The notes under the pieces are model-generated. The model was not told where the DNA came from, did not search any database, and worked only from the letters and a program-made list of their open reading frames with translations. A program made the position numbers and the translations under genes. Source: Candidatus Heimdallarchaeota archaeon (GTDB lineage: Archaea > Asgardarchaeota > Heimdallarchaeia > JABLTI01). From it: DNA of 64,000 bases. Shown here in pieces: positions 30,648 through 36,590 of the stretch. The stretch lies in NCBI GenBank assembly GCA_019058275.1, contig JAHLVW010000101.1, positions 1 to 64,000 on the forward strand, in the 5' to 3' direction. Every line of letters begins with the position of its first letter. Position 1 is the first letter of the stretch.

Positions 30648-30740
30648 CTTATATAAATTGTCCCGCGACGCTAAATTGAGTAATGTTAGTGGTGCCTAAT
30701 TATTTCGTATAATCCTTTATGAGTTTTTTGTCTCGGGACA
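30648..30740 (+). promoter_or_regulatory. TATA box followed by two TGTCYCGRGACA-type palindromes
   Basis: CTTATATAAA (30648-30657), TGTCCCGCGACG (30659-30670), TGTCTCGGGACA (30729-30740). Confidence 0.65.
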
Positions 30741-30802
30741 AAATGTATATTCTATCGACAGAATTAAACCTTAACCACATTTTAGTGGAGGGTAGACTTA
30801 TA

Positions 30803-31382
30803 TTGAAGAAATTTACAAAAGTTCTATTCATAATTATTGCTCTAATCGGAGTAACTTCAATTGCTGATGTTCAAGCAGAACAACCATATAAGCATCTAAC
30901 TTACAGCGACGTCACTTCTTCATTTCAAGCATTTTTGACTGGTGGTTATATTGTAAATTCACTAGACAATATGGTGGCAGCACCTGAGAAGTAAAAGCAG
31001 GAAGAATAAGTCCTTGGTTTCCAATGGATTACTGTGTTATGGCTACACATGTAATATGCTTTTACACTATTTTTAACACTGAAGATCATGAATTAGCTCT
31101 AGAATTTTACAAAATGGAGACAACTGGCTTACTTAAATCTATGTTCATTCTTAATGGTGTACAATTAGACATAAAATTAACAGCAATGAAACGACATCTT
31201 GGTTATCTTGAATATCCTCAATATGGTTGGTAGTACGGAGTAGGCGCTTTATTTAAACTTGAAGAACTTCCTGTGGGTACATATGATTTAGAAACTCAAA
31301 TTGATGTCTGGATAGATGGCATCGGATGGTTTACAGCTTTCTATTGGACAACATATTAAATATTGTTGAATGCTGGCACTAA
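30803..31382 (+). pseudogene. Decayed gene for a secreted protein
   Basis: Signal peptide MKKFTKVLFIIIALIG...VQA; frameshift at CCTGAGAAG (~30985-30990); in-frame TAG 31231 followed by YGVGALFKLEELPVGTYDLET...; probable further shift near 31357. Confidence 0.7.
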
Positions 31383-31492
31383 ACCAGCTTCTCTTTCTTT
31401 TTTACACATTATATAATAATGAAGTCAAATACTACTTTTTCATATCAACAAGATATTTAACTAACCATTCTTAAAATAATCTGTAAGCGAAG

Positions 31493-31515
31493 TTTTAAAT
31501 AATTGTCCCGAGACA
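31493..31515 (+). promoter_or_regulatory. TATA box + palindromic operator of the AT-hook/bZIP-like gene
   Basis: TTTTAAATA (31493-31501), then TGTCCCGAGACA (31504-31515), the exact reverse complement of the 30729 site. Confidence 0.7.
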
Positions 31516-31539
31516 GTAAATAACAATAAGTGATCAATT

Positions 31540-32142
31540 ATGTCCCAAGAGAAAAGACCACGAGGAAGACCAAGGAAATATGAAACAAACGCAGAGAGGA
31601 AAAAAGCATACAGAGAGAGAAAAAAAGCTGAACGAATAGAGCTAGAAAAACGAGTGGTAAAGCTGGAAAAGCAATTAGAGAAAACAGACCATGAGGTTGC
31701 TTCTAAGAAAATAACAAGCGATCCAATATTATCACTTACTTTTAACGAAATAATGAAAACTGATACAGAGATACTCCAAACATATGTCACCTCATTGAAA
31801 AAAGAATTGGGAGATAGTTTAAGCCTATATAGCCCATTAAGTATAATCATTGAAAATATAATCGGTTCTTTGGAACCTATTGTTTCTACTAGAAGTTTAA
31901 AAATAAGCCCTAATCAGATAATTTCATTACAAGTGGACAAGCAAATAGATGAGTTCGAAGAATCACTTAAGCAGCTTACATTACTTCACATTATTGAATT
32001 AGAGCTTGGTCATAGAGAAAACGATAGTATAGAAGATTACGAATTAGAAATATTAGAACGTCGAATAGATGAGCTTGAAAAAGAAGTTGTCAAGAAGAAG
32101 GAAATAAAGGTCTCATCGAAAATTATCACAAATGAAAGATAA
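31540..32142 (+). CDS. AT-hook + basic-region/leucine-zipper-like DNA-binding protein
   Basis: RPRGRPRK AT-hook; N17-x7-R25-x9-L35-x6-L42 spacing; C-terminal coiled coil. Confidence 0.7.
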   Translation: MSQEKRPRGRPRKYETNAERKKAYRERKKAERIELEKRVVKLEKQLEKTDHEVASKKITSDPILSLTFNEIMKTDTEILQTYVTSLKKELGDSLSLYSPLSIIIENIIGSLEPIVSTRSLKISPNQIISLQVDKQIDEFEESLKQLTLLHIIELELGHRENDSIEDYELEILERRIDELEKEVVKKKEIKVSSKIITNER

Positions 32143-32171: not shown

Positions 32172-33665
32172 TCATTGTTTGACATTGAAATCATAATAGT
32201 TTTTGATGAAATCATCCAAAGATTGTACTTGTTCTATTAATACTGAATGTTTTTCAAATATATCTTTAGCAATTCGATCTAATCCTCTCTTACCAGCTAT
32301 TTGTTGCGTCTGAGATAATAATACTCTTATTTCTTTCATATCTAATTCAGAATCTGAGAATTTTGCTTGAACCCACAAAGTAAAAAGTCGAAGGCTATAG
32401 GCTTCCATTTGAATCCAATAGACTTTTTCTTCTTTTGCATAATCAAGCAAATCATCAGTGTATATTTTGATCTCATTCAATATTTCCAAATTTCCAGATA
32501 ATTGAAAATCATGTAAAAGAAGTTCACATAAATAAATCAGTGCTTTAACTATGAAATTTACATTTGGATCACCAAAATCAATGATATCCCGTAACAATTG
32601 TTCTGCTTTTTCTCTATCAAGTGATCGTGGTGAATCTTTCAATAATAATACTTCAGACATATTTACAGCATTTTTTAAAGGAGAATCTTTGTTATTTGAT
32701 GTCAATTGTTTGATTAAGCTCAGATATTCTTTAGCTTTACTGATATTATTTACTTTATATTCCAATTCTATTAGAGCATATAAGACTATACCATACCTCA
32801 TGTGATCATTTATAGACTGATAAATGTCAAGGCTCTTAAGGAAATTCTTTCTAGCTAATTCATAATCTCCTTTTCTGAGATAAACAAATCCAGTTTGTTC
32901 CAAGTAGTATCCTCTTTTAAAGTCATTATCCATTTGGTTTATAAATGGTAAAATTTGTTCCATATATTTTATTGCCAGAGTATATTGCCCCTTATCATAA
33001 TAAATAACTCCTAAATGAAAGAGCTCAATTGATAGTTGATACTTGTTACCTATTTCTTCAAAAATAGCTATACTTTGTTTTATATATCCAATTGCTTTCT
33101 TTAAGTCACCATTTCTTTTGTGATTATAACCAATTACTTCATAGCATTTCGCAATACCATATTTATCATCAATTTTTTTTCGAATTGACAAAGATTTATT
33201 CAACAGTTCTAAACTAAGATCAACTTTCTCTAAATGAAAATAAATAGTGCCTTTTCTGAATAAGAGATTAGCTTTGCGTCTTAGGAATTTCTCTGGTTCT
33301 TCTAGTTTCAAGGAATCAAGTAGTGCCAATTCTTCATCAATTAAACTAATAGCTTCATCTATTCTACCTGTTCTTTGCAGTATTATCCCTTTTACAAAAA
33401 TTGCTAATGTATCTAGGTTAGGATTATTTGTCTTTTCAATTGTCGAAAGAATACTATTCATTAGTTGTAAGGCTTTACCTGTTTCTCCTAGTTCAAACAT
33501 AGCTAAACCTTTGAATTTATCAATTTGCAATTTTTCTTCTTTTGTTAGGGTTTTCTCCTTCTGTAGTCTAGTTATTAGGTTGTATGTTTTCTTAAAATGA
33601 CCATTTTTGAGAAGATTACCAAAATCCGGTAATTTACTTTCCTTTGAGTTTAAAACCCATCCCAT
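32172..33665 (-). CDS. Tetratricopeptide-repeat protein
   Basis: Several G.IY...G...A......SL.I repeats followed by a helical C-terminal domain. Confidence 0.88.
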   Translation of the reverse strand: MGWVLNSKESKLPDFGNLLKNGHFKKTYNLITRLQKEKTLTKEEKLQIDKFKGLAMFELGETGKALQLMNSILSTIEKTNNPNLDTLAIFVKGIILQRTGRIDEAISLIDEELALLDSLKLEEPEKFLRRKANLLFRKGTIYFHLEKVDLSLELLNKSLSIRKKIDDKYGIAKCYEVIGYNHKRNGDLKKAIGYIKQSIAIFEEIGNKYQLSIELFHLGVIYYDKGQYTLAIKYMEQILPFINQMDNDFKRGYYLEQTGFVYLRKGDYELARKNFLKSLDIYQSINDHMRYGIVLYALIELEYKVNNISKAKEYLSLIKQLTSNNKDSPLKNAVNMSEVLLLKDSPRSLDREKAEQLLRDIIDFGDPNVNFIVKALIYLCELLLHDFQLSGNLEILNEIKIYTDDLLDYAKEEKVYWIQMEAYSLRLFTLWVQAKFSDSELDMKEIRVLLSQTQQIAGKRGLDRIAKDIFEKHSVLIEQVQSLDDFIKNYYDFNVKQ

Positions 33666-33846: not shown

Positions 33847-34005
33847 TTGATTATACTGACAGAAGAAAAAAAACGTCGTGGTCGTCCAAGAAAATATCAA
33901 ACTGAAGCTGAAGAACATAGAGCTTACAGGCAAAGAAAGAAAGAAAAAGTTGCATTCTTGGAAAAGAAAATCACTGAGCTAGAAAAGCAATCAGACAAAG
34001 AATAA
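33847..34005 (+). CDS. Uncalled ~50-aa AT-hook/mini-zipper paralog of 31540..32142
   Basis: (L)IILTEEKKRRGRPRKYQTEAEEHRAYRQRKKEKVAFLEKKITELEKQSDKE*. Start TTG 33847, or CTG 33856 behind GGGAG. Confidence 0.7.
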   Translation: MIILTEEKKRRGRPRKYQTEAEEHRAYRQRKKEKVAFLEKKITELEKQSDKE

Positions 34006-34890: not shown

Positions 34891-35262
34891 CTAAAAATCG
34901 ATTTTATATCGACTAAACTTAGCGAACCATCCATCCTCACCATTCAGTTCCTTGTGAAGGTTTTTACTCTTGAGAACAATATCATCACCATCTACTAGTA
35001 TTTGTATATCCTTAGTTGTAACATTATTTTCTTCAAGCGCTATTAAGAAATCGTGAATAGCAGTATCCATTGTAGCTGCAACACATTTGCGAAGAAGGTC
35101 CTTCTGATCTGGTGTTAATTGCTTAAGCTCATTTTGGATGTCTTGCAATACGTTTGCTTTCCAATAACCAATCATTAATTTGTCAAAGAAATCAAAAGGT
35201 GCATCTCTTAAATTATTCATCAAAAATTGACCGAATTTAGCTAGTTTTAAGTCAGAAGTCAT
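34891..35262 (-). CDS. Conserved hypothetical protein (immunity-protein-like)
   Basis: KFGQFLM.NLRD...D.AIHDFL.ALEE...L.GEDGWFAKFS pattern recalled from small bacterial proteins. Confidence 0.6.
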   Translation of the reverse strand: MTSDLKLAKFGQFLMNNLRDAPFDFFDKLMIGYWKANVLQDIQNELKQLTPDQKDLLRKCVAATMDTAIHDFLIALEENNVTTKDIQILVDGDDIVLKSKNLHKELNGEDGWFAKFSRYKIDF

Positions 35263-35699: not shown

Positions 35700-36590
35700 A
35701 TGGCGCAAAAAAAGAAAAAATTGATACTCATTGCCGATTCAGCTTGTGATCTGCCAATTGAAACAATCAAAAAGTATGGTATTGTCATTCTCCCAATTTC
35801 AATTTACTTTCCTGATGAAACTAGAACTCAATATATTGATATAACAAAGGAAGAGTTCTACCATAAAATTGTCGAGGAAAATTTAGAACCAACAACTGGG
35901 GTTCCATCTCCAAGAGTTTATAAAAAAACTTTTGATGAAGCCTTAGAGAAAGCAGATGAAGCAATAATGGTTAATCTTTCAAGAGAATTAAGTGGAATCT
36001 ATGGATATGGCGTGATTTATGCAAAGCAATTTGCTGAAGACAAAATCACTGTTGTAGATAGTAGAAATGCAACACTTCCATTTGGGTTAATAGTTTTAAA
36101 AGTAGCAAAAATGATTGAAAAAGGTCTGGCTAAAGAAGAAATTTTGGAGAAATTGAAAACAGAGATTATACCAAAAACACAAATGAATGCTTTTGTTGGA
36201 TCGTTAAAATACCTAAAAAGATCAGGAAGAATTTCTACATTACAACACCTGTTAGGAGAAATGTTAAACTATAAACCATTGTTGACCTTTGTAGATGGTA
36301 AATTAGATTCTCCTATGAAAGTTCGTGGTGAAGATGCAAAAATGGATTACTTAAAGAAACTGGGAGAGAAATTGGTTGTTGATATTCCAGAACATGAAAC
36401 AATTGTTGTTATTCACTCTCGTAATTTTGAAAAAGCAGAGGAACTAATGAATCATCTGAAAAAAGTTTCAAAAAAGAAAATCGAATACCTTACATGGGAA
36501 ATCGGAACAGCCATTGGAGTTCATGCTGGCCCTGGTGCACTTGGATTAACATGGTTAGGAAAGTCAAGTGATGAGCTATTAGGGAAATAA
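35700..36590 (+). CDS. degV: DegV/FakB fatty-acid-binding protein
   Basis: ADSACDLP, PTTGVPSP, LSRELSG, VVDSR, LKYLKRSGRI, IGVHAGPG. Confidence 0.92.
   Translation: MAQKKKKLILIADSACDLPIETIKKYGIVILPISIYFPDETRTQYIDITKEEFYHKIVEENLEPTTGVPSPRVYKKTFDEALEKADEAIMVNLSRELSGIYGYGVIYAKQFAEDKITVVDSRNATLPFGLIVLKVAKMIEKGLAKEEILEKLKTEIIPKTQMNAFVGSLKYLKRSGRISTLQHLLGEMLNYKPLLTFVDGKLDSPMKVRGEDAKMDYLKKLGEKLVVDIPEHETIVVIHSRNFEKAEELMNHLKKVSKKKIEYLTWEIGTAIGVHAGPGALGLTWLGKSSDELLGK

Follow-up and report, generated by a model that had tools for sequence, protein, structure and literature searches.

Does an archaeon from the group closest to eukaryotes encode a regulator that reads DNA in the manner of eukaryotic basic leucine zipper (bZIP) factors, and at which site would such a protein act? 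The question is raised by a gene at positions 31540-32142 (+ strand, stop codon included) of a 64,000-nucleotide stretch of DNA from a Candidatus Heimdallarchaeota archaeon (assembly GCA_019058275.1, contig JAHLVW010000101.1, positions 1 to 64,000; hereafter "the window"). The gene encodes a 200-residue AT-hook, basic-helix and coiled-coil protein, here called P0001, which an initial annotation, made from the letters alone, had taken for a dimeric and possibly "proto-bZIP" regulator. We find that P0001 belongs to a previously undescribed family, which we regard as a new bZIP-like family of archaeal regulators. Furthermore, we think it probable, though well short of certain, that P0001 is a Heimdallarchaeia-restricted, homodimeric and autoregulatory DNA-binding protein, in which an AT-hook and a bZIP-like reading helix recognise the palindrome TGTCYCGRGACA.

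A family of AT-hook and basic-helix proteins in Heimdallarchaeota

The host genome comprises 4.1 Mb in 118 contigs, is 92.8% complete and has a G+C content of 32%. The reading frame at 31540-32142 is a genuine gene, because its product has homologues as well as paralogues in the same genome, and because a Shine-Dalgarno-like GTGAT at 31530..31534 (+), 6-10 nucleotides (nt) 5′ of the ATG, is kept in orthologues as GGTGA or AGTGA. An antisense open reading frame (ORF) of 129 residues at 31461-31850 was rejected as a shadow frame, since it overlaps the conserved coding sequence.

A word-indexed search of public data retrieved 58 relatives of P0001, and all of the named ones come from Heimdallarchaeota or "Asgard group" assemblies, which bears out the guess that the DNA derives from an Asgard archaeon. 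We aligned 35 members, and all column counts given here come from this alignment. It resolves two subfamilies of about 190-205 residues. A third one, of 270-311 residues, shares both ends with the others and carries a long insertion, in addition to a 3-residue insertion after L35. In the alignment, the columns K5, G9, R10, P11, R12, T16, R20, A23, Y24, R27, K28, L79, R159, L179 and E180 are invariant. Among these, T16, R20, A23, Y24, R27 and K28 are spaced i, i+4, i+7, i+8, i+11 and i+12 and thus occupy a single helical face.

The residues that had drawn attention to the gene, N17, R25, L35, V39, L42 and L46, are exactly where they had been reported in the 200-codon frame, as is the quoted N-terminus, and give the spacing N-x7-R-x9-L-x6-L. 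The heptad columns are well conserved (L35 is Leu in 32 members and Met in 3; V39 is Val in 30, Ile in 4 and Leu in 1; L42 is Leu in 30, Ile in 3 and Met in 2). Position 46 is partly hydrophobic (13 Leu, 10 Thr, 5 Ile) and no regular pattern follows it, so that the zipper spans about two heptads, as had been cautioned from the outset. The Asn and Arg that define bZIP proteins are not conserved: position 17 is occupied by Asn in 20 members, Arg in 9, Asp in 3, Ser in 2 and Gln in 1, and position 25 by Arg in 25 and His in 10. At the positions of the bZIP Ala-Ala pair, P0001 has R20 and K21. The initial annotation had considered that the closest homologues might be bacterial mobile-element proteins lacking N17, L35 and L42; they turn out to be Heimdall and Asgard proteins with L35 and L42 conserved, but N17 is not conserved.

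Next we determined how far the family extends by a six-frame search of 301 Asgard genomes sampled across the phylum. The family is present in 33 of these genomes, at 1-6 copies per genome, and its carriers are confined to three families of one Heimdall class (7/10, 22/29 and 3/21 genomes); it was not found by the same search in the approximately 240 genomes of other Asgard families. Likewise, the carriers seen in a scan of species-representative genomes are labelled Heimdallarchaeota or "Promethearchaeati". Full-length members with adjoining tetratricopeptide repeat (TPR) genes also occur on single contigs labelled Bathyarchaeia (L018) and Thorarchaeota (L029), and mis-binning or lateral transfer could account for these members outside Heimdallarchaeota bins.

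A genome-rare palindrome upstream of family genes

A 12-bp palindrome, TGTCCCGAGACA (consensus TGTCYCGRGACR), is located at 31504..31515, ending 24 nt before the ATG of the P0001 gene. This putative operator, read directly from the sequence and conserved across family loci, abuts a TATA-like box, TTTTAAATAAT, at 31493..31503 (+), and A/T boxes are present at the same position in orthologous promoters. Of 28 family loci taken from different assemblies, 24 have the exact core GTCYCGRGAC within about 260 nt 5′ of the start codon, and 26 do so when one mismatch is allowed. Most copies are located 31-55 nt before the start codon, directly after the A/T box, while the flanking sequence has otherwise diverged; the long subfamily has an extra copy 44-47 bp farther upstream.

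The palindrome is rare elsewhere. In the 4.1-Mb genome the 10-mer core has five copies, three of which are inside long ORFs and two of which are intergenic, and both intergenic copies (31504 and 30729) lie upstream of the P0001 gene. The second of them, an exact palindrome TGTCTCGGGACA at 30729..30740, about 800 nt upstream of the gene, was read directly and recovered by the genome search. For the exact 12-mer, we set the matches of a pattern search in 83 genomes of the class against the positions of family genes. By our count, 32 of the 53 copies in genomes that both searches covered lie upstream of a family gene at a distance of no more than 170 nt. A site placed at random in a 3-Mb genome would fall there with a chance of about 1e-4 in each case.

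Abutting 6-bp half-sites in a 12-bp palindrome suit a pair of helices diverging from one dimer axis, the geometry known from bZIP proteins and also from basic helix-loop-helix (bHLH) proteins. The A/T flanks would suit AT-hooks lying in the minor groove. Because the palindrome is both rare and linked to promoters, the pattern points to the classical phylogenetic footprint of a dimeric, sequence-specific autoregulator. Sequence-specific DNA binding by P0001, which had been proposed earlier, fits with this compact conserved site upstream of family genes, but the identity of the binder is itself something that we infer.

We also considered whether the palindrome might act as an RNA hairpin and rejected this reading: the stem would have only 4 bp, and the positions Y5 and R8 vary independently (CCGA, TCGG, TCGA, CCGG) rather than compensating each other. 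The palindrome probably lies at or before the transcription start, a further point against a hairpin.

Several further elements were read around the gene. A second TATA-like candidate, TTAAAATAAT, is located at 31471-31480 (+), and a weaker copy of the palindrome, TGTCCCGCGACG, lies behind TATATAAAT at 30659-30670. In the region 30650-31360, the 30659 and 30729 sites precede a small ORF (ATG at 30744) with a signal-peptide-like start, whose reading carries on in other frames (31024-31233 and 31236-31360); the nearest relative, L006, has a much shorter spacer there, and the region may be a frameshifted or decayed gene. Separately, the perfect palindrome TGTCTCGAGACA is found at G000:C7:6238-6249 in this genome, within a 316-residue ORF, and once per genome in G305, G238, G277 and G271; these copies are probably conserved coding sequence and not an operator.

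Predicted structure and dimer interface

To P0001 we assign five consecutive parts. The AT-hook comprises residues 5-15 (KRPRGRPRKYE; 31552..31584, +), as defined by Pfam AT_hook, the invariant columns and an AlphaFold2 model in which it is disordered; AT_hook scores 18.5-18.6 bits on the N-terminal 60 residues, above the cut-off of 17.4, and 16.7 bits on the full protein. The basic helix, a putative major-groove reader, follows at residues 16-34 (31585..31641, +), as delimited by column counts, the AlphaFold2 model and an in-register bZIP alignment. The short heptad stretch at residues 35-57 (31642..31710, +) rests on the column counts and forms part of the same continuous predicted helix. 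A central helical region, residues 58-151 (31711..31992, +), provides the symmetric interface in a two-copy structure prediction, and the C-terminal part of the long helix (31993..32139, +) carries the conserved R159, L169, I176, L179 and E180, according to the alignment and AlphaFold2.

AlphaFold2, run with the family alignment, gives residues 1-16 no secondary structure and places residues 17-60 in a continuous helix spanning the basic region and the heptads, with a predicted local distance difference test (pLDDT) value of 87-95 over residues 11-40. Three short helices follow (68-73, 76-90 and 99-108), and then a long helix at 128-199. Both the order of an AT-hook and a basic region and, from residue 17 onwards, the continuous helix expected across residues 15-48 agree with what had been anticipated from the sequence.

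The homodimer prediction for P0001 reached a score of 0.69, compared with 0.01 for the best control, with a contact agreement between runs of at least 73% and a partner pLDDT of at least 68. In a benchmark, the mark used for calling a dimer is reached by 20 of 30 same-chain-pair structures and by 1 of 23 single-chain structures, figures that are a rough guide here given the custom alignment. Confident symmetric contacts involve residues 58, 64-72, 95-108 and 124-151. The model thus supports a homodimer that would be held by the central domain, so that the dimeric regulator of the initial annotation is upheld as a predicted dimer, but with its confident contacts within 58-151 and not in the zipper.

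Similarity to eukaryotic bZIP proteins

We next examined how closely P0001 resembles bZIP proteins. The gathering cut-offs of the Pfam models are 27.6 bits for bZIP_1 (PF00170) and 22.3 bits for bZIP_2 (PF07716), and the scores obtained here, 13.2-18.2 and 7.2-15.7 bits, respectively, are both below them, the best family member reaching an E value of 5.2e-5. Residues 10-52 align without gaps to positions 6-48 of the bZIP_1 profile, in what we take to be the canonical register. At E ≤ 0.1, the Pfam model matched most often by 25 family N-termini is bZIP_1 (17 of them), with bZIP_2 matched by 13, and AT_hook is the sole other recurring Pfam family. P0001 is the top bZIP_1 match of its own genome and the only one to cover the basic region; weak bZIP_1 matches were found in all 14 control prokaryote genomes.

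In the PDB, the best match of the family profile is the bZIP of Aspergillus HapX (7aw7), with an E value of 0.03 for the full profile and 0.0063 for the N-terminal profile. Pap1, GCN4, HY5 and ATF4 are listed as well, with ABIN and designed coiled coils interleaved among the bZIP matches. We then built a HapX alignment from database proteins carrying PF00170 and compared it with the family using hhalign, which gave a probability of 87% over 31 columns and a register in which N17 faces the bZIP Asn, AYRERKK pairs with AFRERRA and the first Leu is matched by L35. The local profile-profile score to HapX was 32.0, compared with 9.4 +/- 2.1 (maximum 16.7) for 200 column shuffles, none of which reached it, and with 14.2 for the reversed profile. 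When the profile was split, the basic part alone scored 16.3 and the heptad part alone 18.4, neither of them clearly above the shuffle maximum. Among bZIP proteins, those of the fungal Yap/HapX type are the ones that the family resembles most.

Judged from these profiles, the resemblance to bZIP proteins is genuine and order-specific, but it does not establish homology. The Yap-type likeness noted from the outset therefore survives in part: the best Pfam and PDB matches are indeed bZIP proteins in the proposed register, but they fall below the cut-offs, have marginal PDB E values and are mixed with other coiled coils. Collectively, the comparison describes a protein that seems bZIP-like in architecture and whose membership of the bZIP family is not supported.

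The AT-hook and basic-helix motif beyond Asgard archaea

To place the N-terminus in a wider context, a profile of its 56 residues was compared with 1.84 billion representative sequences, yielding 585 proteins at E ≤ 1e-3. Outside the Heimdall family, most of them are small proteins with the motif GRPRxYx[TS]xAERQ[KR]AYRxR, placed at the N-terminus or the extreme C-terminus or present as two or three tandem copies. Named carriers include Duganella, Xanthobacter, Vogesella, Uliginosibacterium, Synechococcus and metagenome-assembled genomes (MAGs) of Anaerolineae and Oscillospiraceae, and the motif is found in IMG/VR viral contigs too. Thus, the caution that a motif of the type GRPRK..NAERQ.AYR.R also occurs in small bacterial and phage proteins was well placed, as P0001 shares it with many proteins that have no zipper.

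For 95 non-Asgard carriers, the G, R, P, A, A-Y-R and R positions are nearly invariant, and Pfam recognises AT_hook in 16, a MazE-like antitoxin domain in 9, bZIP_2 in 2, bZIP_1 in 1 and Dam in 1. A motif-only alignment matches HapX in the same register (74%), with a score of 24.9 compared with a shuffle maximum of 20.6. Three PHROGs of unknown function (9651, 10506 and 6334) match at 1e-5 to 1e-4. We found no Pfam or NCBIfam model for the motif GRPRxYxTxAERQKAYRxR, and a tblastn search of phage and plasmid collections with the N-terminal 60 residues gave no match, the low-complexity filter possibly having masked the query.

The sequence comparisons suggest that the putative DNA-reading unit is a modular AT-hook and basic-helix peptide that mostly occurs without a zipper, and that the special trait of the Heimdall family is the series of heptad hydrophobics following the motif in bZIP register. 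In mobile-element proteins, the motif seems to serve as a DNA-binding arm that has no name. The likeness of P0001 to bZIP proteins is best read as convergence, or possible remote kinship, built on a widespread prokaryotic AT-hook/basic-helix peptide.

Some carriers have distinctive layouts. The motif is N-terminal in a 690-residue terminase-like protein and in a Dam-like adenine methylase, and C-terminal in an 894-residue protein; the loci of these fusions are on IMG/VR contigs (L043/L044), in Synechococcus (L039) and in a Bathyarchaeota MAG (L036). A large group of small bacterial proteins (P0097, P0098, P0100, P0102, P0125, P0139, P0170 and others) combines GRPRxYxTxAERQxAYRxRLK with a tail of the form ...VVRDVR...SD(I/V)IDLS, and we suspect that the MazE-matching carriers are the proteins with the SD(I/V)IDLS tail. 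The motif is also repeated four or five times in A/T-rich, eukaryote-like proteins. The eukaryote-like entries P0069, P0109, P0112 and P0191 have either 4-5 tandem copies of xNAE[RK]QKAYRERKK, or AT-hooks and the motif before a Cys-rich region, and may be transposon proteins.

Paralogues and neighbouring genes

P0001 has relatives in its own genome. A mini-paralogue of 52 residues at 33847..34005 (+), found by genome search and conserved in the genus, has no more than an AT-hook, a basic helix and two heptads; its basic helix differs by N17 to E, R20 to E and K21 to H, and P0065 is a record nearly identical to it. The mini-paralogue has the palindrome upstream in G190:C122 and lacks it in the window. 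A 204-residue paralogue is located on contig C1 (L003/L050, G000:C1:130246-130860), and its palindrome is degenerate, with only a GACA half where orthologues have TGTCTCGGGACA at -153. The TPR gene downstream of this paralogue is apparently split into ORFs of 374 and 183 residues.

Between the P0001 gene and the mini-paralogue lies a gene for a 497-residue MalT-like TPR protein (32172..33665, - strand; Pfam TPR_12 and TPR_MalT). Homologous TPR genes (25-28% identity) adjoin family genes in at least nine loci, namely L003 (that of the C1 paralogue), L017, L018, L022, L029, L030 and L051-L053, and the TPR genes of L017, L018 and L022 are co-directional and encode 603-611 residues. Three other genomes of the genus show related arrangements, with mini-paralogue, TPR and full-length genes co-directional in G268:C403 and G199:C13, and full-length and TPR genes in G277:C60. 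This recurrent adjacency suggests that a family gene and a TPR gene may form a two-protein module, a DNA binder with a TPR sensor or adaptor. A 493-residue gene convergent with the orthologue in L005 was considered as a TPR homologue and proved unrelated on comparison.

The gene is flanked in the window by ordinary chromosomal genes (a major facilitator superfamily (MFS) transporter, TPR, zinc ribbon) of even G+C content; in related genomes, the MFS transporter and further flanking genes remain in synteny with it. A DUF6547 gene (34891-35262, - strand) and the gene after it (35700-36590, + strand) adjoin family members in L007, L008 and L054 as well, at 55-70% identity, which shows local synteny within the genus.

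Other resources were also consulted. Sequencing-run listings contain the stretch in sediment metagenome DNA runs, probably the source of the assembly, and in no RNA run. Literature searches with the motif letters, with bZIP and Asgard, and with leucine zipper and Heimdallarchaeota gave no description of the P0001 family or of the bacterial motif. An NCBIfam scan of P0001 gave noise only, and a feature search of the ESM Atlas gave no lead, its best score of 0.82 being at a level often reached by shuffled proteins.

A proposed mode of action and its alternatives

The gene and its family, the predicted helix and dimer, and a palindrome that is conserved, rare in the genome and linked to promoters are computational results. 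From them we infer that P0001 is the palindrome binder, as well as its docking geometry, the repression and the TPR partnership. Under this hypothesis, each subunit would present a disordered AT-hook (GRPR) followed by a basic α-helix, whose invariant face (T16, R20, A23, Y24, R27 and K28) would read one half of the TGTCYC/GRGACA palindrome in the major groove, and the AT-hook would enter the minor groove of the flanking A/T-rich DNA, provided on one side by the TATA-like box. The helix would run on into the short heptads L35, V39 and L42, and it is chiefly the central helical domain (residues 58-151) that would hold the dimer together. Once bound, the protein would block access of TBP, TFB or RNA polymerase, a known mechanism of other archaeal repressors. 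It would most likely repress its own gene, because the site adjoins the TATA-like box, 24 nt before the ATG, and falls on that box or between it and the probable transcription start. The neighbouring MalT-like TPR protein may modulate the regulator.

Several observations weigh against this proposal. Another factor could be the binder of the palindrome. The mini-paralogue and the C1 paralogue of this genome have no intact palindrome, in the H25 clade the palindrome is at about -153, away from the core promoter, and the genome search, which found no further intergenic copies, gives no sign of a regulon outside the gene's own locus. On the side of the protein, the monomer model is moderate overall (mean pLDDT 76.8, predicted template modelling score 0.47), and a Foldseek comparison of it with the PDB returned nothing at E ≤ 0.001, only long-helix noise. 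Furthermore, two heptads are short for a stable coiled coil, heptads 35-46 are not among the confident dimer contacts, and the model is silent on the pairing of residues 35-57.

Three other explanations have to be weighed against the proposed autoregulator. P0001 might be a true, very distant homologue of eukaryotic bZIP proteins, a "proto-bZIP" surviving in the archaeal lineage nearest to eukaryotes. The prominence of bZIP_1 and bZIP_2 among the Pfam matches, the top rank of HapX in a PDB list that includes other bZIP proteins, the hhalign result in canonical register above all shuffles, the continuous predicted helix and the Heimdallarchaeon host all speak for such a relic. Yet scores of 17-18 bits remain below the Pfam threshold, weak bZIP_1 matches are common to the control prokaryotes, unrelated coiled coils rank between the bZIP matches, and the scores of the basic region and the zipper taken separately are close to the shuffle maximum. 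Both defining residues are variable (Asn: N/R/D/S/Q; Arg: R/H), the likeness peaks at the Yap/HapX type, which may be a derived form of bZIP, the family was not found in the approximately 240 other Asgard genomes searched, and the nearest relatives of the basic motif are zipperless bacterial and phage peptides. We consider this ancestry quite unlikely, and the proto-bZIP membership put forward in the initial annotation is not supported, given scores under the cut-offs, a variable Asn/Arg pair and occurrence in three families of one class only. In a related scenario, the GRPRxYxTxAERQKAYRERK peptide would be the raw material of the bZIP basic region and the Heimdall family an intermediate whose helix was extended into heptads; we regard this too as decidedly improbable, and if it were true, the family would be a genuine archaeal relative of bZIP proteins, closest to the Yap/Pap1/HapX type.

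Alternatively, the protein may derive from a mobile element, as a regulator or accessory (repressor, antitoxin-like or partition-type) domesticated in a few Heimdall lineages together with the palindrome as its cognate site. This would agree with the presence of GRPRxYxTxAERQKAYRERK in viral contigs, in terminase-like and Dam fusions, at the termini of large proteins and as tandem repeats, with the MazE-like domain of 9/95 non-Asgard carriers, with the PHROG matches, and with the narrow distribution at 1-6 copies per genome. The ordinary chromosomal neighbours, the uniform G+C content around the gene and the synteny kept with flanking genes speak against this; no integrase, toxin or capsid gene was seen beside the family loci examined, and phage and plasmid collections gave no tblastn match to a query that may have been masked. 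On balance, we find such an origin unlikely. P0001 could finally be a non-specific nucleoid or chromatin protein with an AT-hook, or a structural coiled coil, with no defined operator. An AT-hook joined to a Lys/Arg-rich helix would bind any A/T-rich DNA in a genome of this composition, long helices dominate the model, and no regulon is visible. This is nonetheless hard to reconcile with a G+C-rich 12-bp palindrome that follows the promoters of the family across diverged genomes and is nearly absent otherwise, with invariant residues on one helical face, and with small paralogous families beside TPR genes, which are unlike abundant chromatin proteins; we consider it very unlikely.

Relation to known systems and significance

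The autoregulator that we propose shares features with several known systems. With eukaryotic bZIP proteins (PF00170/PF07716; Yap, Pap1, HapX) it has in common a basic region that passes into heptad leucines as one helix, predicted in our case, the spacing N-x7-R-x9-L-x6-L, a core A-[YF]-R-E-R-[KR] followed by ..LE..V..LE, and a likely target in the form of a compact palindrome with abutting half-sites. It differs from them by its scores below the cut-offs, the variable Asn/Arg, R20/K21 in place of Ala-Ala, about two heptads, a predicted interface in an extra central domain, an AT-hook directly before the helix, and its narrow archaeal clade. With the HMGA-type AT-hook (PF02178), a minor-groove peptide, it shares the invariant G-R-P-R core, the basic flanks and the predicted disorder; however, HMGA-type chromatin proteins are disordered and have several hooks, whereas P0001 has a single hook fused to a putative sequence-reading helix. 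The bacterial and viral carriers of GRPRxYx[TS]xAERQ[KR]AYRxR have the same 25-residue AT-hook and basic-helix unit but mostly lack in-register heptads, and they lack the central and C-terminal domains of the P0001 family. As for regulators under TPR control (MalT, and RRNPP proteins such as PlcR, Rgg and NprR), these also associate a DNA-binding module with MalT-like TPRs, as does the P0001 locus, where, in contrast, a gene of its own encodes the TPR protein and the DNA-binding part is of another type than helix-turn-helix.

Among archaeal regulators, the helix-turn-helix type predominates overwhelmingly (bioRxiv 10.1101/2025.05.05.652248). Precedents of another kind are GvpE of Halobacterium and AmzR/MA2561 of Methanosarcina (same preprint), for which promoter binding was proposed or shown to involve oligomers with paired basic α-helices, similar to bZIP or bHLH proteins. 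AmzR is a repressor; it has sensor domains of the PAS and GAF types, and its dimer is linked by a disulfide. These are families separate from that of P0001, with no AT-hook reported in either, and the likeness is one of mechanism only. Moreover, the sensor is fused in AmzR, whereas the P0001 family, which is specific to Heimdall archaea, has a TPR protein encoded separately next to it; a Pfam scan of P0001 gave no PAS or GAF match.

Regulators of this paired-basic-helix type, GvpE and AmzR among them, are rare and have been recognised only recently. If our reading is correct, the P0001 family would add a third case, independent of these two, from the archaea nearest to eukaryotes and with an AT-hook fused to the reading helix. 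A precise predicted operator is unusual for a hypothetical protein of an uncultured organism, and it makes the hypothesis directly testable with a 200-residue protein and a 30-bp duplex. Our results also draw attention to an AT-hook/basic-helix peptide that is unnamed but occurs very widely, among bacteria and phages as well as in eukaryote-like proteins. Taken together, the P0001 family bears on how easily bZIP-like DNA recognition may arise, whether by convergence or by descent.

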